DNA from: an uncultured Acidimicrobiales bacterium
Lineage (GTDB): Bacteria; Actinomycetota; Acidimicrobiia; Acidimicrobiales; SHLQ01
Reading direction: 5' to 3'
Length of the DNA stretch: 52,279 nt
Assembly (NCBI GenBank): GCA_964494395.1
Contig: CAZBTI010000008.1
Location: 1-52,279, forward strand
Position numbers and translations under genes: made by a program. Positions 32,396 through 49,193 of this stretch are shown here, piece after piece. A model generated the notes under the pieces. That model saw nothing but the letters and a program-made list of their open reading frames with translations. It was not told where the DNA came from and ran no database searches. Each line of letters begins with the position of its first letter. The stretch's first letter is position 1.

Positions 32396-33559
32396 TTAGC
32401 CAGTGACGACGGTGATCGCCGTGGTTGCGTCTTCCAGAGCAACCATGCGTGGCGGCCCGTAGCCCAGTCGCTGTGCGATCTCTTCGGCAACGGCTTGGGC
32501 AAGGGGGTCGTGCACTTGCACTTCGAGCGGTTGGGCGGTGACGCCGTCGGTATTGCCGAGGACGGTGACCGACCCCCCCGAGCGAGTGATCGAGGAGATG
32601 ATCGGTAGTTGGCTGCTGGCGCCGAGTGAGTTGTCGAGCAACAGTACCGTCGGCCGCCCGATCGCTGGGATCTGCTCGGGGAACGGGACGATCTGTGCGA
32701 CCAAGTCCAAAATCATTTCGTTCTGTGCGACATACACGGTGTCTTCAGGGAACTGCGCTGGAGAAGTTCTGGTGCCGATGGTTCGGTAGGAGACTTCGGC
32801 GTTTGAGAGGTCTCCGACGAGGGAAGCGAAGCTTCTCTCTTGTCCAAGGACTTCGGTCCGTTCCGAGTCACCGGCTGTGCGAGAGATCCAAGCACGCCAG
32901 ATCTGCTGTTGCCGGAGTGCAACACCGAGGGCTGGCTCGCTGGGGTTGCGATGCCCGGCGATGGTCGCGATCTCGTTAAGATCGAATCCCCTAGTGCCAG
33001 CTTCCAACACAACCTCGGTCGGCGCATTCGGGATGCCACTCGCATCGAGGGGACGGACGAGGTCGTCGCGGAGTGTGAGCGTGAGCGGCAAGTCGTCGAC
33101 CATGAGCCCGGTCCACGAGGAAGCATCGAGAACGACAACGTCACCAAAGCCCGTCCGAAGAGATCCGTTGAGTTCGCTGATGACGGCGCTTAGTCCGCTC
33201 ACTCGGAAGAGATCCGCGAGTGTGAGCCCGGTCTGCTCTGCATCGATGAAGTTCCGCGGAATCGTGACGACAGATCCGCCAGCGTTACCGTCGGCACCGG
33301 TGAGCAGCGACACGCCAACGAGTTCGGCTCCGGCTTCTGCGGTAACCGCTGTGTGAAGAACGAGGGCGGTCTCGGTGGCGGTGGTGAACGCCCGAAAACC
33401 GGGTGAGGATGGGTCTGAAGGGAACTCGGTGACCTGGCCTGCCTGGGACTGCAAGATCGCCGTCTCGGCCTGCGTCGCAGCCCACACTGCCCCCAGCAGG
33501 ATGAGGATCAGGAAACCTAAGAAGCTCGCCGACAAGACCTGACCGCGGCGAAGCGTCAC
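32396..33559 (-). CDS. Membrane-anchored protein with C-terminal LytR_C-like domain
   Basis: 387 aa, N-terminal TM. The C-terminal ..TVLLLDNSLGASSQLPIISSITRSGGSVTVLGNTDG...ITVVTG resembles the LytR_C domain. Lies between nadD and rsfS, as in many actinobacteria. Confidence 0.55.
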   Translation of the reverse strand: MTLRRGQVLSASFLGFLILILLGAVWAATQAETAILQSQAGQVTEFPSDPSSPGFRAFTTATETALVLHTAVTAEAGAELVGVSLLTGADGNAGGSVVTIPRNFIDAEQTGLTLADLFRVSGLSAVISELNGSLRTGFGDVVVLDASSWTGLMVDDLPLTLTLRDDLVRPLDASGIPNAPTEVVLEAGTRGFDLNEIATIAGHRNPSEPALGVALRQQQIWRAWISRTAGDSERTEVLGQERSFASLVGDLSNAEVSYRTIGTRTSPAQFPEDTVYVAQNEMILDLVAQIVPFPEQIPAIGRPTVLLLDNSLGASSQLPIISSITRSGGSVTVLGNTDGVTAQPLEVQVHDPLAQAVAEEIAQRLGYGPPRMVALEDATTAITVVTG

Positions 33560-37000: not shown

Positions 37001-37669
37001 CTAGAGATTCTTGCCGAAGTTGGCTAGCGTCTGACGGATTGTTTCGACGTCTTGACGGGTGATTTTCTGCTCGACCCTGCTCTCGGGGTTGAGGCACACA
37101 CGCCAGAGTTCGTCAGCGTTTAGGCCAGCGATGCTCTTGAGATAGTCGTGGTCGATGCCCGTGATCTTCTTCTCCCTCATCTTTGCGACAAGTGCCTCAC
37201 GATGAGGTGCCGAGTACGCATAGACCACATCTTCGAGTTGGTCGGCATCGATGGCAAACAACGGTGCACGGACATTGACGAGCCGATCGGCGCTAATGAG
37301 TTCGGGCATAAGGAAGTCGAACGCAAGCAACAAAAGGGCGCTGGCGTGAACCCCGTCTGGGTCGCCGTCGGCCAAGATCAACACCCGGTCGTATTGCACC
37401 GAGTCCAGATCGAACGCTTCCCCACTCCACGCACCGACCGCTCGAACGATCGACTTCAGCTTGTCGTTCTCGAAGACCTCGCGCTCCGATGCCCGCTCGA
37501 CGTTCATGGGCTTGCCTTGCACAGCGAGGATTGCTTGGGACTTCGGATCTCGCGCAGCCTTTGCAGCATTCGCCGCAGAGATCCCCTCGACTACAAAGAG
37601 CTCTCGTGGCCCTCCACCTTGCTCATTGGTGCAAGGTGTAAATGCGTCCAAAGGCGAGGAGCGTGACAT
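37001..37669 (-). CDS. Orphan GyrB/ParE C-terminal half: Toprim domain plus GyrB C-terminal tail, no ATPase/transducer
   Basis: PRELFVVEGISAANAAKAARD..QAILAVQGKPMNVE; RVLILADGDPDGVHASALLLLAF; YLKSIAGLNADELWRVCLNPESR. Start set at M25 (MSRSSPLD), 10 nt after the upstream gene's stop. The ORF is open to 37741. Confidence 0.75.
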   Translation of the reverse strand: MSRSSPLDAFTPCTNEQGGGPRELFVVEGISAANAAKAARDPKSQAILAVQGKPMNVERASEREVFENDKLKSIVRAVGAWSGEAFDLDSVQYDRVLILADGDPDGVHASALLLLAFDFLMPELISADRLVNVRAPLFAIDADQLEDVVYAYSAPHREALVAKMREKKITGIDHDYLKSIAGLNADELWRVCLNPESRVEQKITRQDVETIRQTLANFGKNL

Positions 37670-37679
37670 CGCTCCAACG

Positions 37680-38429
37680 CTAGCAAGACCACTCGCGGTG
37701 AGACTTCCTACTTGCTGGCGATTGCGGTAAGAGCTGACCACCCCACCACACTCGCCATAGGTAAAAAATTATCCCGCTAGCGAGAAACGTACCGAGCGCT
37801 GCGGTCGCGACGGAGGGCTGCACACTCTCAGCTCTCGTATCCCACGTCCACCGTATAACCGCAAGAAGTGCACCGCTAGAAAGGATGATCATTGCAGTCA
37901 GCGAAGATCCCAGAATGAGCCGTTGCCTCATTGCCGATGACCCTACGAGGATTGCACCCAACCCACTCACGGTGAACGACCCAACGTTCAAAGGTGTTGC
38001 AGGGCTCACCGTCAATGCCGCGAAAATATCCGTTATGCCGAAGACCACCAAATAGACCGCGAATCCCCATCGGAAAGAAAGGTCCCACGGCCTTCTCAAA
38101 GAGAACCAGATGAAGGAAGAGACTAGGCCAACGAGCATGAGGTCGACGCCGAGTCCGAACCTTCCAACGTCACCCGTGATGGTCAAGACCGTCACGATGG
38201 CTATTTGCAGTGCGAGCATCAAGGCAAACGGCACAAGTGTCGCTTCAGACTTTCGCGTGATTCGCCATGTCACGTAAGAGAGCGCGCCCTGCAAAAGTTC
38301 GAACACGCACTCGGCTGAGCTGTGGTCAGCGATGAAGTCGTCGGTGTAATCGAGCCAGTCTCGCGTGAGGCATTCGGCAACCTCTGGACGCTCACCTATC
38401 GTCACTATGGCAAAGAGTAGGCGCCGCAT
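37680..38429 (-). CDS. Polytopic (about 6 TM) membrane protein of unknown family
   Basis: 249-aa ORF. About 60-aa soluble N-terminus, then six hydrophobic helices. Lower GC than surrounding genes. Confidence 0.6.
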   Translation of the reverse strand: MRRLLFAIVTIGERPEVAECLTRDWLDYTDDFIADHSSAECVFELLQGALSYVTWRITRKSEATLVPFALMLALQIAIVTVLTITGDVGRFGLGVDLMLVGLVSSFIWFSLRRPWDLSFRWGFAVYLVVFGITDIFAALTVSPATPLNVGSFTVSGLGAILVGSSAMRQRLILGSSLTAMIILSSGALLAVIRWTWDTRAESVQPSVATAALGTFLASGIIFYLWRVWWGGQLLPQSPASRKSHREWSC

Positions 38430-38555
38430 GCGATGAAAGACTAGTGCGACCTCTGGGCACGCAACGCTGCTACCAAAAACAAACTGTTCTTTCGGTCGCG
38501 ACCGTTTACTATTCCTCGCGTTCCAAATCTCTTGACGGTTTTCAATTCGTGACCG

Positions 38556-40055
38556 CTAGGCCAAATTATCCGCAAACTTCTCTAACTGGCGGAGGTTCCG
38601 AACTTCGAAGATGCCATCGCAGTAGCTCGAGTACTCGCCGATGATCGAGTCGCCGGTGTCCCAGTAGCTCTTTGGTTCGGGGTTGAGCCAGAACACGTTG
38701 CGGGCCCGCTCGGCAATGTCCTTGATGATCCAACTGTTCGGGGCGTGGTAGTTGTTGCGCGCGTCGCCGAGGATCAGCACAGAAGTCTTCGGCCCAACGT
38801 CCTTGCCGTACTTGTTCCAGAACACCTCAAGAGCGTGGCCGTAGTCGCTGTGGCCATCGACCCACACGACGTCGGCCTCGCTGTTCACTCGATGAATTGC
38901 TTCGGTGATGTCGTCGGTTTGTTCGAAGTACTCGGTGACCTCATCGAGCCCATCGATGAACACAAACGAGCGGACTTGGGTGAATTGGCTCGACAGTGCG
39001 TAGACGAGGTGGAGCGTGAAGCGGGCGAACGCAGCAACCGAACCCGAGATGTCGGCAATGACCATGATCTCGGGCTTCTTTGGCCGTGGGTTGCGAAACT
39101 TCGGTTCGGCAGGGACACCGCCATAGGAAAGCGATGTACGAATCGTGTGCCGGAAATCGAGCGGACCCTTGCGGCCGCGGCGACGCTTGCGAGCAAGCCG
39201 CACCGCAAGTTTGCGAGTGAGTGGATAGATGGCCTTGCGCAGGTTGGCCATCTCTTCTCGACTGGCGTGCATGAAGTCGACATCTTCGGGAAGCGGCTTA
39301 CGCAGCGTCTTCGCCATAGCTTCGACACCGCGGTCGGCAACGAGGCGGCGACGGATCTCGGCTTCGATCTCCTTCTTGAGCGACTCGATGCGATCTTTGA
39401 ACTCGTCGCGCTGCAAGCGTTGTTCGAACTGGCTCATCTCTTCAGACTCGTCCTGTTCTTGTTGCATAAGCTTGTCGAGGATGCCGTCGAGGTCGAGGTT
39501 CCGAAGCGTGCGATACAGGTAGTACGTACCGCCGACCGGCCGACCAGGCTCCATACCCGCATATCGGCGAACCGATTCGCGGGCCATCGAGCGCATCATG
39601 GACTCGTCGCCATTGGCCAGCGCGTTGTAGAGCATTTCGGCCAACTCTTCTGGCGTCATCCCAGAGTTGCCACCCTGCCCCTTGCCCTCACCCTGTTGAC
39701 CGGGTGGGCCTTGACCTTCTTCGTCTTCGTCCTCTTCGTCGAGGAGGCTCGAGAGTTCGCTGTCTAACGCGTACTCCTCGCCACGAAGTGAGAAGTACAC
39801 ATCGAAGACGATCTCGAATGCTTTCCAATGCGAGTTGTTCTTGACCAGCGTCGCCGCCAACGCATACTTCAGCGCGGTGCGATCCTCGAGGGGAACGTGC
39901 CGGATTGCCTCCATTGCGTCGAGGTTCTCGGTGAGGCTTACGGGCAGCCCAGCGTTTCGAAGCTCGACGATAAAGCCCGACAACAAGTCGAGCAGCGGCG
40001 ACGGCTCGGGTTCGGGCCCAGCACCATTGGTTTCGGCTGGCGGCACGGTGGTCAT
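38556..40055 (-). CDS. VWA domain-containing CoxE-like protein
   Basis: 499 aa. N-terminal ..FIVELRNAGLPVSLTENLDAMEAI.., an acidic/charged middle region, and a C-terminal VWA with ..IMVIADISGSVAAFARF.. (MIDAS-like DxSxS). Confidence 0.85.
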   Translation of the reverse strand: MTTVPPAETNGAGPEPEPSPLLDLLSGFIVELRNAGLPVSLTENLDAMEAIRHVPLEDRTALKYALAATLVKNNSHWKAFEIVFDVYFSLRGEEYALDSELSSLLDEEDEDEEGQGPPGQQGEGKGQGGNSGMTPEELAEMLYNALANGDESMMRSMARESVRRYAGMEPGRPVGGTYYLYRTLRNLDLDGILDKLMQQEQDESEEMSQFEQRLQRDEFKDRIESLKKEIEAEIRRRLVADRGVEAMAKTLRKPLPEDVDFMHASREEMANLRKAIYPLTRKLAVRLARKRRRGRKGPLDFRHTIRTSLSYGGVPAEPKFRNPRPKKPEIMVIADISGSVAAFARFTLHLVYALSSQFTQVRSFVFIDGLDEVTEYFEQTDDITEAIHRVNSEADVVWVDGHSDYGHALEVFWNKYGKDVGPKTSVLILGDARNNYHAPNSWIIKDIAERARNVFWLNPEPKSYWDTGDSIIGEYSSYCDGIFEVRNLRQLEKFADNLA

Positions 40056-40058
40056 GAA

Positions 40059-40964
40059 CTAGCCGGAGTAGCTGTCGGCGTTTGCGTTCATGTCCTTCAC
40101 GGCCTTGTCGATATCGGTCCGGTACTTCAACAAGATGTTGACAGTTTCCGTCGCCGTCTCGGCGTCGATCTGATCGATGCCGAGCAGCACCAGCGTGCGG
40201 GCCCAGTCGATGGTCTCACTAACAGATGGGTGCTTCTTCAACTCGAGCTGACGGATCGAACGGACGACGCGGGCGACTTGGTTTGCAAGATGTTCAGTGA
40301 TGTCGGGAACCCTTGTCATGACGATCTGCTTCTCGCGCTCCATCTCTGGGTAGTCGAGGTGCAAGTACAGGGCACGACGCTTCAGCGCTTCGGACAGCTC
40401 GCGGGTGTTGTTCGACGTGAGGAAGACCAACGGGATCTGCTTTGCGACAACCGTTCCCAATTCGGGAATCGATACCTGGTAGTCCGACAGAATCTCGAGC
40501 AGCAGTGCTTCGGTTTCGATCTCGACACGATCGACTTCGTCGATGAGCAACACGACGGGCTCTTCGGAACGAATGGCTTCGAGGAGCGGGCGAGCGAGAA
40601 GAAATTCTTCGCTGAAGATGTCATCTTCGAGTTCAGACCAGTCGCTCTCGCCGCTGCGATCGGACTGGATGCGCAAAAGCTGCTTCTTGTAGTTCCACTC
40701 GTACAGCGCCTTAGCCTCGTCGAGGCCCTCGTAGCACTGCAAGCGAATGAGCTTGGCGCCCGTCATCTCCGCCACCGACTTTGCGAGCTGGGTCTTGCCT
40801 GTACCGGCAGGCCCTTCGACCAGAATTGGTTTCTCAAGCCGATCTGCGAGGTACACGGTGCCTGCTATGGCATCGTCGGCAAGGTAATCAACAGAAGCAA
40901 GTTTGTCCCGAACTCCTGGTATGTCTTCAAAGCGATGGTCCATTCCCAGAAGGGTATCGGCCAC
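40059..40964 (-). CDS. MoxR-family AAA+ ATPase (CoxD-like)
   Basis: 301 aa. Walker A VEGPAGTGKTQLAKS, Walker B VLLIDEVDR. Immediately upstream of the VWA partner (3-nt gap). Confidence 0.9.
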   Translation of the reverse strand: MADTLLGMDHRFEDIPGVRDKLASVDYLADDAIAGTVYLADRLEKPILVEGPAGTGKTQLAKSVAEMTGAKLIRLQCYEGLDEAKALYEWNYKKQLLRIQSDRSGESDWSELEDDIFSEEFLLARPLLEAIRSEEPVVLLIDEVDRVEIETEALLLEILSDYQVSIPELGTVVAKQIPLVFLTSNNTRELSEALKRRALYLHLDYPEMEREKQIVMTRVPDITEHLANQVARVVRSIRQLELKKHPSVSETIDWARTLVLLGIDQIDAETATETVNILLKYRTDIDKAVKDMNANADSYSG

Positions 40965-45169: not shown

Positions 45170-45846
45170 CCCCTGAACAGCTCCGAGCGCTGCGCGAGTC
45201 GGCGGTCAACATCATTGCCTACGAGAACCAACTCGAGGCACAACGAACCAAGCTGTACGGCGAACTTGAGCGGGCCAACACGAATGCCCGTCAAGCCGTG
45301 CTCATGGCCTCCGAAGCTGAGCAGGCCGGCGAGGCTGCAGACGCTGCGAGGTTCAGCGAATCGGCCGAGTTGATCGCAGGCGAGATCGTGAGCATCGACA
45401 CCCAGATCGCTGCTATCGATATCGAGTTGATCGAAGCCAAACAGGCATCGGAAGAAGCAAAGTCCATCGCATCTGATTCGGCGATCGAAATGACGCAGAT
45501 GAAAGCAAAGGGCGCAGCGCTTCGGGCCGACTTTGAGCGGGCCAAGATGGCCGAGGCCACACTCGAGGCCGAAGGCGGCACGAGCTTCGATTCGGTCAAA
45601 GGCAAGATCGACAACCGCGTGGCTACCGCCGAGGCGCGTGCCGAACTCGATGCTGTCGAGAGCAAAAATGATGTTGCTGGTGCAACAGCGATGGTCGAAC
45701 AGGCTGCGGCCGAATCAAAGGCAGCAGCAAAGCTCGCCGAGATCCGCAACCAGATGGGTTTCGTGAGCGCCGCTCCCCAGGACGCAGTAACACCACCTAC
45801 TGATCCTGCCGAGGATGACGCCTCCGAAGACGACAATAACGACTAG
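45166..45846 (+). CDS. N-terminally shortened PspA/IM30 paralogue
   Basis: 226 aa. ATGA overlap with pspA. AVNIIAYENQLEAQRTKLYGELERANTNARQAVLMASEAEQ aligns with AANVIAHQKQTEMRLDKSMEELEKLTSNARQAVMMADEAMQ of the upstream gene. Acidic tail. Confidence 0.62.
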   Translation: MTPEQLRALRESAVNIIAYENQLEAQRTKLYGELERANTNARQAVLMASEAEQAGEAADAARFSESAELIAGEIVSIDTQIAAIDIELIEAKQASEEAKSIASDSAIEMTQMKAKGAALRADFERAKMAEATLEAEGGTSFDSVKGKIDNRVATAEARAELDAVESKNDVAGATAMVEQAAAESKAAAKLAEIRNQMGFVSAAPQDAVTPPTDPAEDDASEDDNND

Positions 45847-48800
45847 GTCCCGGCGAGCGCCCCGAACGTCCAAATCGCGACACCGTGAGACTGATGCACG
45901 GTAAATTCTGCCTGGCCGGGGTACTCGCCGAGGTCAGCGAATCCGTGGAGGTACGGCCAATCAAACGGGTCGGGCGAGATTCCGCCACCGCGGAGGAAGT
46001 ACCTCAGGTACCACTCCGGCAGCGTGTGTGTAGGTGCAAGACCATAGAGCGGCGTACCCGGCCACACCGGGAAGCCGCTTCGCTGGTCGACGCCCAAAAT
46101 TCGGTCAGGACTATCGAAGCCGATTCCCGTGATCCAGGTCCTCCCCGCCGGGTTCGCTCCAAGGGCAAACTGTGCATTCAGGACGACCTGATCTCGGTAG
46201 TGATCTTCTCCGGTTAGAAGGTATGCGTACATGAGGCCGACCCCGTGAGCGTTAGACGGGCCACCCCCGAAGAACAGCTGACCGTTGACCGACTCAGGGA
46301 CCCACCCATAGGCGGTGAGCTCGGCCCCAACCAACAACCAGTCGGCAGCGGCGATGATGGAGTCGGCAGCGTTTTGTCGAACTGCGTCGTCTCCAAGGCC
46401 ATCGGGCAATGTGGCGTATCGCCACGCTCCTTCGCATGCGTAACCGTGGATGCATTGCAGAACTTCGATGCCATCTGAGAGAGGTGAGGTCGCCAAGAAC
46501 AGTTCGTTCCATTGTTCGTCCTCGGTCGCCCGATAGAGACTGGCCGCAGCATTGGTCCGTTGCACTGCGAGATCTGGGTCGGCATTCAGGTCGACCCGGC
46601 CCGCCTCGAGCTCGGCTTCGGCCCACTCCATTGCCCTGACAGCGCTGTCGCGTAGCTCCGCGGCCCGTTCGCTGTCGTAGCGGTCTAAGACGTATGCAGC
46701 GTCGGCCACGACCCACGAGTAGATCCAACTCGACCATGCATCGGGCGCATACACGAAGAGTTCGAGCGGATCGGTCCACGACGTCGTTCCCGCCAACGGG
46801 TGCTCTTCTGACTCGATACCGCCGCGAATAGCCCCGTCTGGAAGCTGCAGACGTCGATACGCGTCAATGCCCCACAAGGCCTCGTCGAGCAAGTCGGGCA
46901 CCCCATCACCTGATTCTGGAATCTGTAGTTCGATCGCCGCTACCTCATCGAATTGATCGACCAAGTCGACGAGGCGTCGGGCCGTCCAAAGGTGCTGGAT
47001 CCGTCGGTCCCAGTCGCCGGCATCGAAGTGCCCACCCCACGCATTGCTTACGGTCTCCTCGGTCGCGCGGGCCACGAGATCTTCAAACATGGGTCCGTCA
47101 CCGCGGCCGTTCGGGTCTTCGAAGAGCGACTGCTCGCTAACCGTTGGAGACCAGCCCTCGTCTGGGTGGTGAGCTCGGGGCCGCTCAAAGGCGGTGAAGG
47201 GTTGTTCTAGGGTGATGCCGGAACGTTGGTGGAACAGCGAGCGCGACACGGTCGACAGCACCGATGCCCATGGGCCGGAGTCGGTGACTTCGAAAGGGCT
47301 CGAGCAACCAATCGACTCAACACAGAAGCGATAGGTGCCGGCTGTTGATATGCCGTCGAGTACAAACTCGGCGGTCGGGCCTCCGCTGAGGTCGCCTCGA
47401 TACAGCTCGGTGTCCGTATTGGGAACAAACACCGCACCATTCACTTGGAGGACCGTTGTGCCTTGAGCATCGACGACCTCACCGCGTAGACCGTCCACTT
47501 CAACGGGGCTCTGCGTCGTGGTCCAGACCGTAACGAACGCCCGCTTTACATCGGCCGTGCCCCAACCAAGGTCGCTGGTCTTTACCGCTGGGCTCCATTC
47601 TCTGTCGCTGATACCGGACTCGACAGGCTCGTCAACACCCGGCAGGTTGATCGATATTTCACCATTTGGGATCGATCCGTTGGTGCGGACGTGGAATTGA
47701 TGGCGCATCGAGAAATCCGTTGTATCGACTTGGCCTGTCGGTGTGGAGATTCTGCCGATATCGATGACGTCCAATGGTGTTCCGTCAGCCGAGAGTACAA
47801 AGTCTTGGGCATCCCACAGCTCCGGTTCCAAGGCGGGGCCTTCGATGAACACCGGAACCCCGGCAACGTTAGTAACCTCACCGAGCTCGAAATCCACCTG
47901 CAGGACATCGCGAGCAACCCGGGAAACTCGAATGAACTCTGGATCGGCCTCACTACCGACGAGAGGCTGGAGCGGGCCGTCGAGCGTGAAGGTGGTGACA
48001 ACGGTGCCACCAACAAGAGCACCGGTTGAACTGCGATAGCGGAGAAAGAGCTCTTGTACACCGGTGGAAGGTACCGAAAGGTCGACTTGGCCAATCGCAT
48101 TCCAAGGAGCGTTTTGAAACGATGGGTCGGTCGCCAGTTGCACTTCTGAAGCACCTACGGGTGCTTGTTGAATGACATTCACCGATGCTGCCAGTGACGG
48201 ATGCGAGATTCGAATGTCGACCATGCTCGGGTCATCGAGAGTGTCGATTTCCGTTTCACACTGCGGCGTTGCAGTGTCCGAGCCATCGCCTCCGTCGCAC
48301 AGATCGATGCCAGCCTGACCGTCAAGACTGTCATCTCCACTCTCGCCGAACAGCTCGTCATCTCCGCCGCCACCCAGCAGCACGTCATCCCCGTCGCCGC
48401 CGTGCAAATTATCGTCGTTGACTGCCCCCTCGAGGATGTCTGCGCCCGGTCCGCCGAAGAGGTCATCGGAACCGTTGCCGCCTCGCAGCCGGTCATCTCC
48501 ATCAAGACCCAGAATCTCGTCTATTCCAGCGCCGCCTACAAGATCATCATCTGCAGGAGAACCGGTGATGATGTCATTGCCATTTCCACCACGAACCAGT
48601 TGACCAGTGCCTAAGTTGCCCCCGTCGCCGGAGTTGAGTACATCATCGCCGGCCCCTCCGATGAGCTGATCCACATCCGGCCCGCCTTCCAACGTGTCAT
48701 CACCTCCCTGGCCTCGAAGATCATCATCTCCACTGCCACCATCGAGTAGATCGTCACCCCCTCCGCCATTCAGGCTGTCGACGCCCATTTCGCCCATGAG

Positions 48801-49193
48801 CACATCGATACCCGCCCGACCGGCGAGGAAATCATCGCCGTCCCCACCAAAGATGGTGTCCATACCCGGCCCACCGTTGATCTGGTCGTCGCCGCCCCCA
48901 CCACAGATCGTGTCATCACCGGCTAAACCGAGAATCACATCGGGGCCCGGCGTACCCAAAATAACGTCGTCGTCCGTCGTGGGCACACCGCCCGTTGCGA
49001 GGTCGACCGTTACCACGAGATCGTTGCACGTCGAGGGTGTTGGTTCCAGCTGTAGAGCTACGTCGGTCGCGTGGGCCTGTGCCAGCCCAGTCGTGGCGAA
49101 GGAGGCGAGGAGCAGCACCAACGCTAGAGAGCAGATTTTCAGGAACCAGATCGCGCCAAGACTCCCCAGGCACCTTCGAATGAACTCACGCAC
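45843..49193 (-). CDS. Secreted multidomain protein: Sec signal peptide, RTX-type Ca-binding repeats, Ig-like/beta region, GH9-like (alpha/alpha)6 glycoside hydrolase domain
   Basis: 1116 aa. Signal ..LLLASFATTGLAQA-HA. About 25 GGxGxDxL-type nonapeptides. GH9 hallmarks ..RSLFHQRSG.. and ..WGGHFDAGDWDRR.. Confidence 0.8.
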   Translation of the reverse strand: MREFIRRCLGSLGAIWFLKICSLALVLLLASFATTGLAQAHATDVALQLEPTPSTCNDLVVTVDLATGGVPTTDDDVILGTPGPDVILGLAGDDTICGGGGDDQINGGPGMDTIFGGDGDDFLAGRAGIDVLMGEMGVDSLNGGGGDDLLDGGSGDDDLRGQGGDDTLEGGPDVDQLIGGAGDDVLNSGDGGNLGTGQLVRGGNGNDIITGSPADDDLVGGAGIDEILGLDGDDRLRGGNGSDDLFGGPGADILEGAVNDDNLHGGDGDDVLLGGGGDDELFGESGDDSLDGQAGIDLCDGGDGSDTATPQCETEIDTLDDPSMVDIRISHPSLAASVNVIQQAPVGASEVQLATDPSFQNAPWNAIGQVDLSVPSTGVQELFLRYRSSTGALVGGTVVTTFTLDGPLQPLVGSEADPEFIRVSRVARDVLQVDFELGEVTNVAGVPVFIEGPALEPELWDAQDFVLSADGTPLDVIDIGRISTPTGQVDTTDFSMRHQFHVRTNGSIPNGEISINLPGVDEPVESGISDREWSPAVKTSDLGWGTADVKRAFVTVWTTTQSPVEVDGLRGEVVDAQGTTVLQVNGAVFVPNTDTELYRGDLSGGPTAEFVLDGISTAGTYRFCVESIGCSSPFEVTDSGPWASVLSTVSRSLFHQRSGITLEQPFTAFERPRAHHPDEGWSPTVSEQSLFEDPNGRGDGPMFEDLVARATEETVSNAWGGHFDAGDWDRRIQHLWTARRLVDLVDQFDEVAAIELQIPESGDGVPDLLDEALWGIDAYRRLQLPDGAIRGGIESEEHPLAGTTSWTDPLELFVYAPDAWSSWIYSWVVADAAYVLDRYDSERAAELRDSAVRAMEWAEAELEAGRVDLNADPDLAVQRTNAAASLYRATEDEQWNELFLATSPLSDGIEVLQCIHGYACEGAWRYATLPDGLGDDAVRQNAADSIIAAADWLLVGAELTAYGWVPESVNGQLFFGGGPSNAHGVGLMYAYLLTGEDHYRDQVVLNAQFALGANPAGRTWITGIGFDSPDRILGVDQRSGFPVWPGTPLYGLAPTHTLPEWYLRYFLRGGGISPDPFDWPYLHGFADLGEYPGQAEFTVHQSHGVAIWTFGALAGT
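48279..48971 (-). repeat. Coding tandem repeats (hemolysin-type calcium-binding nonapeptides, aa ~75-305 of the GH9-like protein)
   Basis: GGGGDDQINGGPGMDTIFGGDGDDFLAGRAGIDVLMG...GGDGDDVLLGGGGDDELFGESGDDSLDGQAGID. Confidence 0.85.

Follow-up and report, generated by a model that had tools for sequence, protein, structure and literature searches.

The window analysed here is a stretch of 52,279 nucleotides from an uncultured Acidimicrobiales bacterium (contig CAZBTI010000008.1). On its minus strand lies a short gene whose product is similar only to the C-terminal half of GyrB/ParE (E 1e-30 to 1e-40), and which we call mini-GyrB. In this lineage a tight co-directional cluster runs from a MoxR AAA+ ATPase through a CoxE-type VWA protein and ends with mini-GyrB; it is flanked by proA/MurJ on one side and by genes for a DAHP synthase and a sigma factor on the other. 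The features of the locus are as follows.

37001 to 37669, minus strand: stand-alone GyrB/ParE B′ (Toprim plus tail) gene, mini-GyrB, 222 aa from the ATG
37346 to 37369, minus strand: codons of D101-G-D103-P-D105-G-V-H108, the Toprim acidic metal-binding cluster (DxDxDG.H), read from the sequence
37586 to 37588, minus strand: codon of Glu28, equivalent of the catalytic Glu in ExxVEG(D)SA, the motif here being EGISAAN, read from the sequence
37670 to 37741, minus strand: in-frame 5′ extension to GTG 37741, probably untranslated, judged from orthologue N-termini
37670 to 38555: lineage-specific low-GC insertion of 886 nt between the VWA stop and the Toprim start, delimited by synteny and GC
37680 to 38429, minus strand: orphan ORF of 249 aa outside the conserved module, ending 10 nt before the mini-GyrB ATG
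38556 to 40055, minus strand: CoxE-type VWA protein, 499 aa, with the MIDAS motif DISGS (Pfam VWA_CoxE, E=5e-43)
40059 to 40964, minus strand: MoxR-class (CoxD-like, AAA_5) AAA+ ATPase, 294-301 aa (Pfam AAA_5/AAA, AAA_5 E=7e-14)

A sequence-only reading of this DNA had proposed that the gene encodes Toprim and tail only, on the strength of three canonical motif correspondences, all of which were reproduced in the HMMER alignment. Pfam recognised Toprim (PF01751) with E=1.3e-10 and 41.7 bits against a cut-off of 23.1, the NCBIfam gyrB profile aligned over positions 422-613 of its 641 (E=3.7e-40), and ParE30/GyrB Toprim-tail fragments in the PDB matched with E=5e-30. Scores stayed far below the whole-protein cut-offs for GyrB/ParE (137.9 versus 740 bits for NF004189, and 125 versus 882 for TIGR01059). 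A predicted structure built from 90 diverse sequences reached pLDDT 95 (23 close orthologues alone gave 50) and a TM score of 0.81 to the B′ part of M. tuberculosis GyrB (5bs8), and its top 50 structural matches were all GyrB/ParE B′ parts. The N-terminus falls at the canonical KLxDC position just ahead of the Toprim fold, and the protein ends (..LANFGKNL) directly past the alpha-beta-alpha seat-belt of the tail, so that it comprises no GHKL domain, no transducer domain and none of the final ~25 residues (LMGD..RRxFI) seen in canonical GyrB. The predicted model does contain the tail fold, yet PF00986 gave no match, and LKSIA stands in place of YKGLG. The reported absence of the ATPase half also held: Pfam found no transducer domain (PF00204) in the protein, tblastn with two full-length GyrB queries detected no GHKL or transducer similarity across the window (best E>0.1), and no such traces were found in the loci of relatives. 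Nor does the window contain a GyrA/ParC-sized partner gene, as had likewise been noted. We are nearly certain that the ORF encodes a stand-alone type IIA topoisomerase B′ module.

The public record of the contig calls a 246-aa version starting at GTG 37741. We place the start at ATG 37669 because the N-terminal alignment of the orthologues supports it, all of them beginning at this position with N-termini of the form MA..FT.C. The 5′ extension overlaps the 3′ end of the 249-aa ORF and, as far as the aligned sequences indicate, is probably not translated. Shine-Dalgarno sequences are mostly unclear or missing in the orthologues and were uninformative for the start codon.

Retention of the catalytic Glu and the DxDxD cluster was confirmed by alignment of 23 orthologues, in which E28, K53, N56, D101, D103, D105, G106, H108 and R198 are invariant. 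Glu28 is also invariant in superfamily alignments, and little or no variation occurs across the superfamily at D101, D103, D105, G106 and H108. Throughout the family the catalytic Glu, the QGK..N loop and the DxDxDG.H metal site persist, alongside common changes in three motifs: RGK to QGK, EGDSAGG to EG(D/I/V)SA(A/S)x, and YKGLG to (Y/L)(K/R)(G/S)(L/I)A. The Asp of EGD is replaced by Ile or Val in the focal clade, and the Arg of PLRGK by Gln family-wide; we take both to be GyrB quinolone-resistance positions. The extreme C-terminus of GyrB, missing throughout the family, is presumably the region that contacts GyrA.

About 60 orthologues were found in Acidimicrobiales MAGs (214-226 aa, 68-80% identity), and their length is uniform. 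The dN/dS of the gene is ~0.10, compared with 0.12 for proA and 0.12 for nadD, and strains differ at 3 variable residues in 222. An apparently disrupted Toprim gene in two loci of sister populations (L018 and L019, 168-aa call) proved to be merely another start call, the DNA being 100% identical. Within its Acidimicrobiales lineage mini-GyrB is a vertically inherited, single-locus chromosomal gene under purifying selection.

The conserved neighbours, which the sequence-only reading did not consider, are the genes for the MoxR ATPase and the VWA protein. The Walker A (GPAGTGKT) and Walker B (LLIDEVD) motifs of the ATPase were read in the translation, and its closest solved relatives are Midasin AAA modules. 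The MoxR gene precedes the VWA gene by 3 nt, an order kept in all related loci. Both proteins fell below the cut-offs of the NCBIfam profiles MadB (AAA; 312 bits versus 475) and MadC (VWA; 166 versus 600), and the origin of these names was not found in the literature searched. The AAA, VWA and Toprim genes are contiguous in 16 of 16 related loci, and the outer junctions vary on both sides. The gap between VWA stop and Toprim start in relatives is 6-19 nt in seven loci, 78-115 nt in five and ~190-240 nt in one, and the genes overlap in two; in an outgroup (L028) the Toprim gene, whose product is only 53% identical, comes right after the same VWA gene, its start overlapping the VWA stop by 4 nt. 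Measured by dN, the Toprim gene evolves ~2.5 times faster than the AAA and VWA genes. The genomes compared are fairly close (DAHP synthase ~90% and sigma factor ~97% identical), so the adjacency could be inherited synteny. Moreover, orthologous-type AAA-VWA pairs in Rhodococcus and Nonomuraea (61-66% and 38-42% identity) have no Toprim gene within 5 kb. The link of MoxR-VWA with mini-GyrB is lineage-specific and, as a functional one, putative.

The 886-nt segment that in this population comes between the VWA gene and the Toprim gene had been read differently. The sequence-only reading described a ~6-TM protein of 249 aa and no recognised family 10 nt upstream of the half-GyrB, and took both genes for an acquired, GC-poor islet. 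Size, spacing and lack of a family were borne out, with five clear hydrophobic segments and a sixth that is weaker. The low GC applies to the segment with the membrane ORF and its spacer (37670-38555, 55.0% versus a window mean of 60.1%, z=-2.7, significant) and not to the Toprim gene (57.4%, z=-1.3, not significant); acquisition likewise fits the inserted ORF only, the Toprim gene being vertically inherited, with conserved synteny, in a core chromosomal region. The membrane ORF is absent from 16 of 16 orthologous loci, and the insertion has no nucleotide similarity in any related locus. Its product gave no Pfam, NCBIfam, PADLOC or PHROG match, and among 5.8 billion proteins nothing was found beyond its own 90% cluster. 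Its codon preference shows no host bias (-0.088 versus +0.07 to +0.23 for confident genes). Strains vary at ~16 residues in 240, non-conservatively, whereas the Toprim gene varies at 3 of 222; within the same populations amino-acid polymorphism is ~5 times higher in the membrane ORF, and a frameshifting C-terminal indel gives products of 240 or 249 aa. An open frame of this length arose in 2 of 5000 shuffles. Around 37670-38555 we found no flanking or meaningful repeats, IS hallmarks, terminators or Rfam match. The membrane ORF is an unrelated, recent, GC-poor insertion, and only in this population does it part the VWA gene from the Toprim gene.

Beyond the Acidimicrobiales, an exhaustive HMMER search found many full-length proteins of 200-240 aa, and 1,179 proteins matched at E<=1e-10, cultured Pirellulaceae being represented among them. 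We define the mini-GyrB family by a length of 200-240 aa, a start at KLxDC, an end past the seat-belt helix, presence of QGK(P)xN and DxDxDG.H, and loss of the GG of EGDSAGG; the focal protein has all of these features. Members occur in Planctomycetota (among cultured genera Stieleria, with the S. varia homologue WP_146521195.1, Novipirellula and Rubripirellula), Pseudomonadota and Actinomycetota, in varied genomic contexts. The window family formed a clade with P0064-67/73 at a bootstrap of 98, and the grouping of all short proteins in one clade had a bootstrap of 35. In a small sample of seven distinct contexts of distant members, the neighbours were multi-rhodanese genes (L027, L031), UvrD and RNB RNase genes (L032), an MFS gene (L023) and neocarzinostatin-domain genes (L024-26), one relative sitting between two of the latter. 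UvrD-type helicase genes are near mini-GyrB in two unrelated contexts, and on a Thiodictyon plasmid an RNB ribonuclease gene lies directly upstream. A Stieleria varia member (39% identical) adjoins a MoxR(AAA_3)-DUF58/VWA-BatA block. Where Toprim-tail proteins carry extensions that might hint at function, these contain no Pfam domain. Neither of the two partner sets proposed below is obligatory. One candidate short form, a 'toprim' match on a B. thuringiensis plasmid, was rejected as it is actually a 726-aa B subunit adjoining gyrA.

The nearest known counterparts are the B′ fragments of GyrB and ParE (E. coli GyrB47, M. tuberculosis GyrB′ 2zjt/5bs8 and S. pneumoniae ParE30), which have 29-32% identity to mini-GyrB and, by the predicted model, the same fold (TM 0.81), sharing the catalytic Glu, the DxDxD cluster and the Toprim, tail and seat-belt elements. 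GyrB47 is an engineered fragment that gives ATP-independent relaxation together with GyrA (PMC7897471). Mini-GyrB, in contrast, is natural, separately encoded and conserved rather than a laboratory or proteolytic product; it also differs in its missing last ~25 residues, its altered EGDSAGG, PLRGK and YKGLG motifs and the lack of an A-subunit gene nearby. In split topoisomerases of the T4 gp39/gp60 type, B-subunit function is likewise spread over separate polypeptides, and in PHROG mini-GyrB weakly matched a small-subunit family of 172 positions named 'DNA topoisomerase II'. The phage systems, however, have an ATPase-bearing partner and an A subunit adjacent, neither of which is encoded in the window; the mini-GyrB gene is chromosomal, and the short form occurs in none of the best 80 viral loci. 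RNase M5, OLD/Gabija GajA, Wadjet JetD and topo VI 'mini-A' resemble mini-GyrB in having a Toprim centre outside a complete topoisomerase or primase, but belong to the DnaG, OLD and topo VIA branches, whereas mini-GyrB is a type IIA B-subunit Toprim with its tail. The two genes upstream, 3 nt apart, are the AAA_5 MoxR and MIDAS-bearing VWA_CoxE pair that defines CoxD/CoxE and NorQ/NorD. Such pairs are chaperones that typically act on a third, co-encoded client protein (PMC4240915, PMC9976466, PMC7159879). Unlike in those systems, no CO dehydrogenase (coxLMS), NOR, Rubisco or other known client is among the neighbours here. A topoisomerase-like Toprim as third gene of a MoxR/VWA cluster, a paper linking Toprim or GyrB-like proteins with MoxR-vWA, and a description of the mini-GyrB family, or an experiment on it, were all absent from the literature searched.

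We favour, at a probability of about 0.5, the overall explanation that mini-GyrB is a stand-alone B′ module, last in a MoxR-VWA cluster, that would act in a DNA-gate-like manner together with partners. Through its intact Toprim centre it would bind Mg2+ and nucleic acid, and it would need partners because it has neither an ATPase of its own nor a domain bearing the nucleophile. A GyrA/ParC-type subunit is one candidate, as the ATP-independent relaxation of DNA by GyrA2/GyrB47_2 suggests by analogy (PMC7897471); the other is the co-encoded MoxR-VWA pair, which by analogy with CoxD/E and NorQ/D may be a chaperone that uses ATP to drive assembly or remodelling and has the VWA MIDAS for an adaptor. 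DNA-gate-like action with either type of partner is possible but tentative. Against partnership with GyrA, mini-GyrB is without the extreme GyrB C-terminus, and its DNA-proximal EGDSAGG and PLRGK motifs are altered. We regard as doubtful the bolder proposal that MoxR, VWA and mini-GyrB form an ATP-driven three-part machine that would load the Toprim module onto, or remove it from, DNA or GyrA (for example to remodel gyrase cleavage complexes that have stalled, or as a Toprim nuclease gated by a chaperone), and that the family of more than 1,100 members would be unrecognised type II topoisomerase accessory factors.

Another reading gives the MoxR-VWA adjacency no functional meaning, as inherited synteny, and takes mini-GyrB for a nuclease, nickase or nucleic-acid binder in DNA or RNA repair or processing that depends on Mg2+, is probably dimeric and works by itself. 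The metal site, invariant or nearly so across a superfamily that has no universal neighbour, is consistent with this, as are the UvrD-type helicases in two unrelated contexts, the Thiodictyon RNB ribonuclease, the AAA-VWA pairs that occur without a Toprim gene and the family-wide loss of the extreme GyrB C-terminus. Other small Toprim proteins, RNase M5 and the OLD nucleases, are hydrolytic enzymes. In type IIA enzymes, however, Toprim alone does not cleave, the nucleophile being the A-subunit tyrosine, and we identified no new candidate catalytic residue in mini-GyrB. GyrB′ is an autonomous, dimerising Toprim-tail unit that has its hinge at YKGLG and a seat-belt at the C-terminus, and by itself a stable homodimer (PMC2761264), which would suit an autonomous enzyme; yet the tight or overlapping VWA-Toprim spacing, kept down to 53% identity, and the second, independent MoxR adjacency in a planctomycete speak against this reading, and we consider a self-sufficient enzyme a somewhat unlikely alternative. 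Mini-GyrB could instead, as the sequence-only reading had also suggested, modulate gyrase or topo IV, competing with GyrB/ParE for the A subunit or soaking up a poison of the Toprim pocket, and so tune supercoiling or protect against a gyrase-targeting toxin. Its predicted fold equals the GyrA-binding B′ unit, GyrB47 assembles with GyrA into an ATP-independent relaxase (PMC7897471), and one relative lies between neocarzinostatin-domain genes. The family-wide changes fall at presumed GyrB quinolone-resistance positions. On the other hand, the gene has a core housekeeping context with no resistance, toxin or biosynthetic genes around it in the 16 orthologous loci, the GyrB C-terminal extension is missing, and invariance of the catalytic Glu and DxDxD would be unnecessary in a pure decoy; a modulator or decoy is unlikely.

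A system of half-GyrB and 6-TM partner on an acquired islet, acting in defence or abortive infection as an effector, or else as an immunity pair, is what the sequence-only reading had suggested from two same-strand ORFs 10 nt apart in a low-GC setting, and the length of the membrane frame is indeed improbable by chance. Such a pairing is nevertheless rejected, as conserved co-occurrence in homologues, on which that reading had made it depend, is lacking; it is very improbable, given a membrane ORF that has no homologue outside its own population, is missing from all 16 orthologous loci, lacks host codon bias and accumulates non-conservative changes and a frameshift, beside a Toprim gene that is vertically inherited. 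Membership in a known defence system was rejected in its own right: PADLOC matched neither the Toprim, the 6-TM nor the VWA protein, and the AAA protein gave only weak, generic P-loop matches. That the gene is a pseudogene, or the leftover of a mobile-element or phage topoisomerase, would account for its being half a B subunit, and phage type II topoisomerases are sometimes split, with the weak PHROG match pointing to a T4 gp60-like small subunit. A gyrB/parE pseudogene is ruled out by the dN/dS of ~0.10, the invariant active site and the lack of any GHKL/transducer remnant, in line with the view that this is not a decaying fragment. Length is uniform over the ~60 orthologues and more than 1,100 relatives, the best 80 viral loci all encode full-length B subunits, and the locus lies in core synteny without integrase, IS or repeats; pseudogene or relic together are hardly tenable. 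Phage matches, ~30-36% identical, are labelled gyrase B or topoisomerase where annotated, and a phage origin was discarded.

Few bacterial enzymes have been studied as thoroughly as gyrase and topo IV, both of them major drug targets, and a widespread, conserved and separately encoded DNA-cleavage half would be an overlooked part of topoisomerase biology. With its catalytic metal site kept and the ATPase lost, mini-GyrB may regulate or partner GyrA/ParC in nature; alternatively, it may be a nuclease derived from a topoisomerase domain. Should the MoxR/VWA adjacency be functional, mini-GyrB would represent a new kind of client for these poorly understood AAA+ systems. Its occurrence in cultured Planctomycetes makes the function directly testable. 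Database labels for the family are inconsistent, members being listed as 'DNA gyrase subunit B', 'topoisomerase IV subunit B' or 'toprim domain-containing protein'.

The ORF at 37001-37669(-) encodes only the C-terminal half of a type IIA topoisomerase B subunit, the Toprim-plus-tail unit B′, and the matches from Pfam, NCBIfam, the PDB and a structure model all bear out the sequence-only reading on this point. The following features define it:

37001-37669, minus strand: Toprim-only ORF, 222 aa from ATG (the mechanical ORF reaches GTG 37741, 246 aa)
37586-37588, minus strand: codon of Glu28, the catalytic Glu, present in this ORF
37346-37369, minus strand: codons of Asp101/103/105-His108, present in this ORF

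The Pfam Toprim match was above threshold (E=1.3e-10), and NCBIfam GyrB/ParE models aligned over their C-terminal third only (gyrB profile 422-613/641, E=3.7e-40), with 138 bits falling far under the whole-protein cut-off of 740 bits. A PDB sequence search returned isolated ParE30 and GyrB Toprim-tail fragments as top matches (E=5e-30), and its alignment recovered all three motif correspondences noticed earlier. The structure model, built with a 90-sequence alignment as input (pLDDT 95, pTM 0.91), had B′ parts of gyrase/topo IV cleavage cores as all of its best 50 structural matches, the top one being M. tuberculosis GyrB 5bs8 (E=3e-22, TM 0.81). By homology the protein corresponds to the B′ half of GyrB/ParE and is predicted to work likewise. 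It is not itself a GyrB/ParE: it has neither GHKL domain nor transducer and stays under the curated scores, and as to the C-terminal signature, the model shows the tail fold, but PF00986 gives no match and the chain stops at ..LANFGKNL, short of the last ~25 canonical residues. The GHKL and transducer domains are indeed missing, as two full-length GyrB queries found no similarity to them anywhere in the window, and no GyrA/ParC-like partner occurs among the window ORFs. The N-termini of orthologues support ATG 37669 as the predicted start, and the 246-aa protein of the public record probably starts too early.

Searching 5.8 billion proteins by word index retrieved about 60 proteins of 214-226 aa that are 68-80% identical to the Toprim-only protein, all from Acidimicrobiia/Acidimicrobiales metagenome-assembled genomes, below which identity falls to 36% at the next match. 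In an alignment of 23 orthologues, the catalytic Glu, K53, N56, D101, D103, D105, G106, H108 and R198 are invariant, confirming retention of the Glu and the acidic cluster, and equally fixed are EGISAAN (canonical EGDSAGG), AVQGKP (PLRGKI) and LKSIAGLN (YKGLGEMN). The median pairwise dN/dS over eight orthologous loci is 0.10, a level of selection equal to that of proA and nadD (0.12 each) from these genomes, and within the window's own population strains differ at only 3 of the 222 residues. Decay to a gyrB/parE pseudogene, of which unconserved acidic residues or upstream GHKL/transducer remnants had been named as signs, is excluded by the fixed active site, the dN/dS, the few strain variants and the lack of any GHKL/transducer trace upstream of the gene in any relative. 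One database member of P0335, the cluster of the window's Toprim protein, ends in '...CLLYTSDAADE' rather than a normal C-terminus, which looks like an assembly or adapter artefact and not a biological variant.

Upstream on the same strand lie two genes of a MoxR/VWA type:

40059-40964, minus strand: MoxR-class AAA+ ATPase gene, AAA_5/AAA matches, Walker A GPAGTGKT, Walker B LLIDEVD
38556-40055, minus strand: CoxE-type VWA gene, VWA_CoxE E=5e-43, MIDAS motif DISGS, 3 nt downstream of the AAA gene

The solved structures nearest to the AAA protein are Midasin AAA modules. The best NCBIfam models, both under cut-off, are 'MadB family AAA-type ATPase' and 'MadC family VWA protein', names whose source could not be traced in the searched literature. 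In MoxR/VWA pairs, CoxD/CoxE and NorQ/NorD among them, the two proteins serve as an ATP-driven chaperone by which a third protein is matured or remodelled (PMC4240915, PMC9976466, PMC7159879); the window's two genes form a bona fide pair of this kind, yet one without any known client. A one-genome-per-species scan and contig look-ups gave 16 related loci, onto which the window's neighbouring proteins were mapped. AAA, VWA and Toprim follow one another on one strand in 16/16, which identifies AAA and VWA as the genuine conserved neighbours of the Toprim-only gene. No locus breaks an inner junction, whereas the outer ones vary, with proA or a response regulator upstream and DAHP synthase downstream, directly or past 1-3 kb insertions. 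At a further locus (L028), a Toprim protein only 53% identical lies behind the same VWA gene, whose last 72 residues are 97% identical, the stop of one and the start of the other overlapping by 4 nt. The variable outer and intact inner junctions, together with this arrangement, are evidence that the trio acts as a unit in this lineage.

In the window, one further ORF separates VWA from Toprim:

37680-38429, minus strand: membrane ORF, 249 aa, stopping 10 nt before the Toprim ATG, five clear hydrophobic segments

As had been noticed, it belongs to no recognised family (Pfam, NCBIfam, PADLOC and PHROGs), and it has no homologue beyond its own 90%-identity cluster. The distance from VWA stop to Toprim start is 886 nt here, compared with 6-19 nt (seven), an overlap (two), 78-115 nt (five) and ~190-240 nt (one) at related loci. 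The membrane ORF occurs in 0/16 of these, and nucleotide similarity to the inserted DNA is absent from every one. The pairing is therefore not conserved, and the proposed system of half-GyrB and membrane partner fails on the refutation criterion that had been set for it: those two genes do not form a real system, and the underlying Toprim-only gene is real and conserved. Neither flanking repeats, IS features nor an Rfam family were found in the inserted DNA. The lower GC ascribed to both genes and their spacer holds for the 886-nt stretch (55.0%, z=-2.7, the window mean being 60.1%) but not for the Toprim gene (57.4%, z=-1.3), which is unremarkable. An open frame of this length arose in 2 of 5000 shuffles, so a chance origin is unlikely. 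The host's codon preference is missing from the ORF (in-frame score -0.088, close to that of its own off-frames; confident genes +0.07 to +0.23), its 13 strain variants differ at ~16 positions, mostly non-conservatively, and a frameshifting indel near the 3′ end alters the C-terminus (240 or 249 aa among strains), all of which argues that constraint on it is weak or absent. The most fitting description is an orphan ORF, young or foreign, that was inserted into an operon. Where it is 240 aa long, gene callers lengthen the Toprim ORF upstream to 252 aa, and at 37680-37741 the public 246-aa Toprim call (GTG 37741) overlaps it.

Searched exhaustively with an HMMER profile, 1.84 billion representatives yielded 8,118 matches, the best 150 of which include many full-length proteins of 200-240 aa. 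All of these short proteins start with Met just ahead of the 'KLxDC ... ELxxVEG' Toprim entry and stop right past the last tail helix, ahead of the canonical LMGD..RRxFI. Common to them are QGK in place of RGK, GLA in place of GLG and an EGDSAGG motif without its GG; the Glu, the Asn, DxDxDG.H and the C-terminal Arg are retained. Their alignment, used as query for a second search, returned 1,179 proteins at E<=1e-10, including cultured Pirellulaceae (Stieleria varia, Novipirellula, Rubripirellula) and Burkholderiales MAGs. The Toprim-only gene belongs to a family that is sizeable, conserved and apparently unstudied, here called mini-GyrB, of more than 1,100 stand-alone GyrB-B′-like proteins of 200-240 aa (P0064-P0329) from Planctomycetota, Burkholderiales and Actinomycetota, variously labelled 'toprim domain-containing protein', 'DNA gyrase subunit B' or 'DNA topoisomerase 4 subunit B'. 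Neighbour-joining united the window family with P0064-P0067/P0073 at 98% bootstrap, but monophyly of all short proteins, apart from full-length B subunits, received a low 35%. Four 'short' sequences with canonical motifs nested among full-length enzymes and are fragments. None of the 80 best viral contigs carries the short form. The searchable literature, whose coverage is incomplete, yielded no account of type IIA B′ proteins that stand alone, nor of Toprim associated with MoxR-vWA.

The contexts of distant members are heterogeneous. In Stieleria varia (L029/L030 8001-13306, CP151726.1), a 39%-identical mini-GyrB heads a co-directional MoxR (AAA_3/bpMoxR) - DUF58/VWA_2 - BatA block after a gap of 240 nt, a second MoxR/VWA adjacency that is independent of the first and involves a different MoxR subfamily. 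A multi-rhodanese gene follows by 22-110 nt in a Burkholderiaceae MAG (L031 8001-10271) and an unrelated JGI contig (L027 654-1729), a pairing recurrent within its subgroup. On the Thiodictyon plasmid pTs417 (L032 2704-7657), a UvrD-type helicase and an RNB ribonuclease precede mini-GyrB on the same strand, with PRTRC-system genes nearby. In an Acidimicrobiia-like lineage (L024 4915-7910; L025; L026), the 46%-identical P0066 is flanked by two genes for neocarzinostatin-family-domain proteins (378-387 aa), with a UvrD helicase two genes upstream; an MFS gene overlaps yet another distant member. In Rhodococcus and Nonomuraea, conversely, AAA-VWA pairs of the same type as in the window (61-66% and 38-42% identity) have no Toprim gene within 5 kb. 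Neither partner set is thus obligatory, and the MoxR/VWA link is lineage-specific, though it is seen twice in unrelated phyla.

The Toprim-only protein is a B′ unit whose Mg2+ centre is intact and which evolves under purifying selection; it has neither ATPase nor nucleophile-bearing partner domain, and its gene closes a MoxR-VWA cluster in this lineage. We tentatively propose, with a probability of roughly 0.3, that it acts on nucleic acid as a partner-dependent, DNA-gate-like module. A GyrA/ParC-type subunit is a plausible partner by analogy, as GyrB′ is an autonomous dimerising unit (PMC2761264) and an engineered GyrA2/GyrB47_2 complex relaxes DNA without ATP (PMC7897471); the missing GyrB extreme C-terminus and the altered DNA-proximal motifs of the family count against it. 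The MoxR-VWA chaperone would likewise be plausible as an ATP-driven loader or remodeller, although their adjacency is not general and may be inherited synteny. Either partnership, if true, would make the gene highly interesting.

The foremost rival is a Toprim nuclease or nickase that works on its own, at which the UvrD and RNB neighbours of distant members hint by suggesting nucleic-acid processing; we give it slightly less probability than the partner-dependent module. A modulator, or a decoy against poisons of the Toprim pocket, is possible but improbable, being without contextual support at these loci. A defence or abortive-infection effector found no backing, as no defence-system model matched. 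The two-gene model, a pseudogene and a mobile relic are, even jointly, very improbable compared with the partner-dependent module.

The window is core chromosome, with obg, proB, an RTX/GH9 protein, pspA, murJ, proA, AAA, VWA, the two focal ORFs, DAHP synthase, a sigma-70 factor, nadD, comEC and lepA. The RTX/GH9 ORF (45843-49193(-), 1116 aa, RTX calcium-binding repeats and a glycoside hydrolase family 9 domain) is an insertion that interrupts otherwise core synteny between proB and the pspA-like/murJ genes. The gene at 32396-33559(-), which has a 4-nt overlap at the nadD stop codon, encodes a protein of 387 aa without Pfam domain; related loci carry a similar-sized protein without Pfam match between nadD and rsfS, and it is a conserved hypothetical gene of a housekeeping operon.
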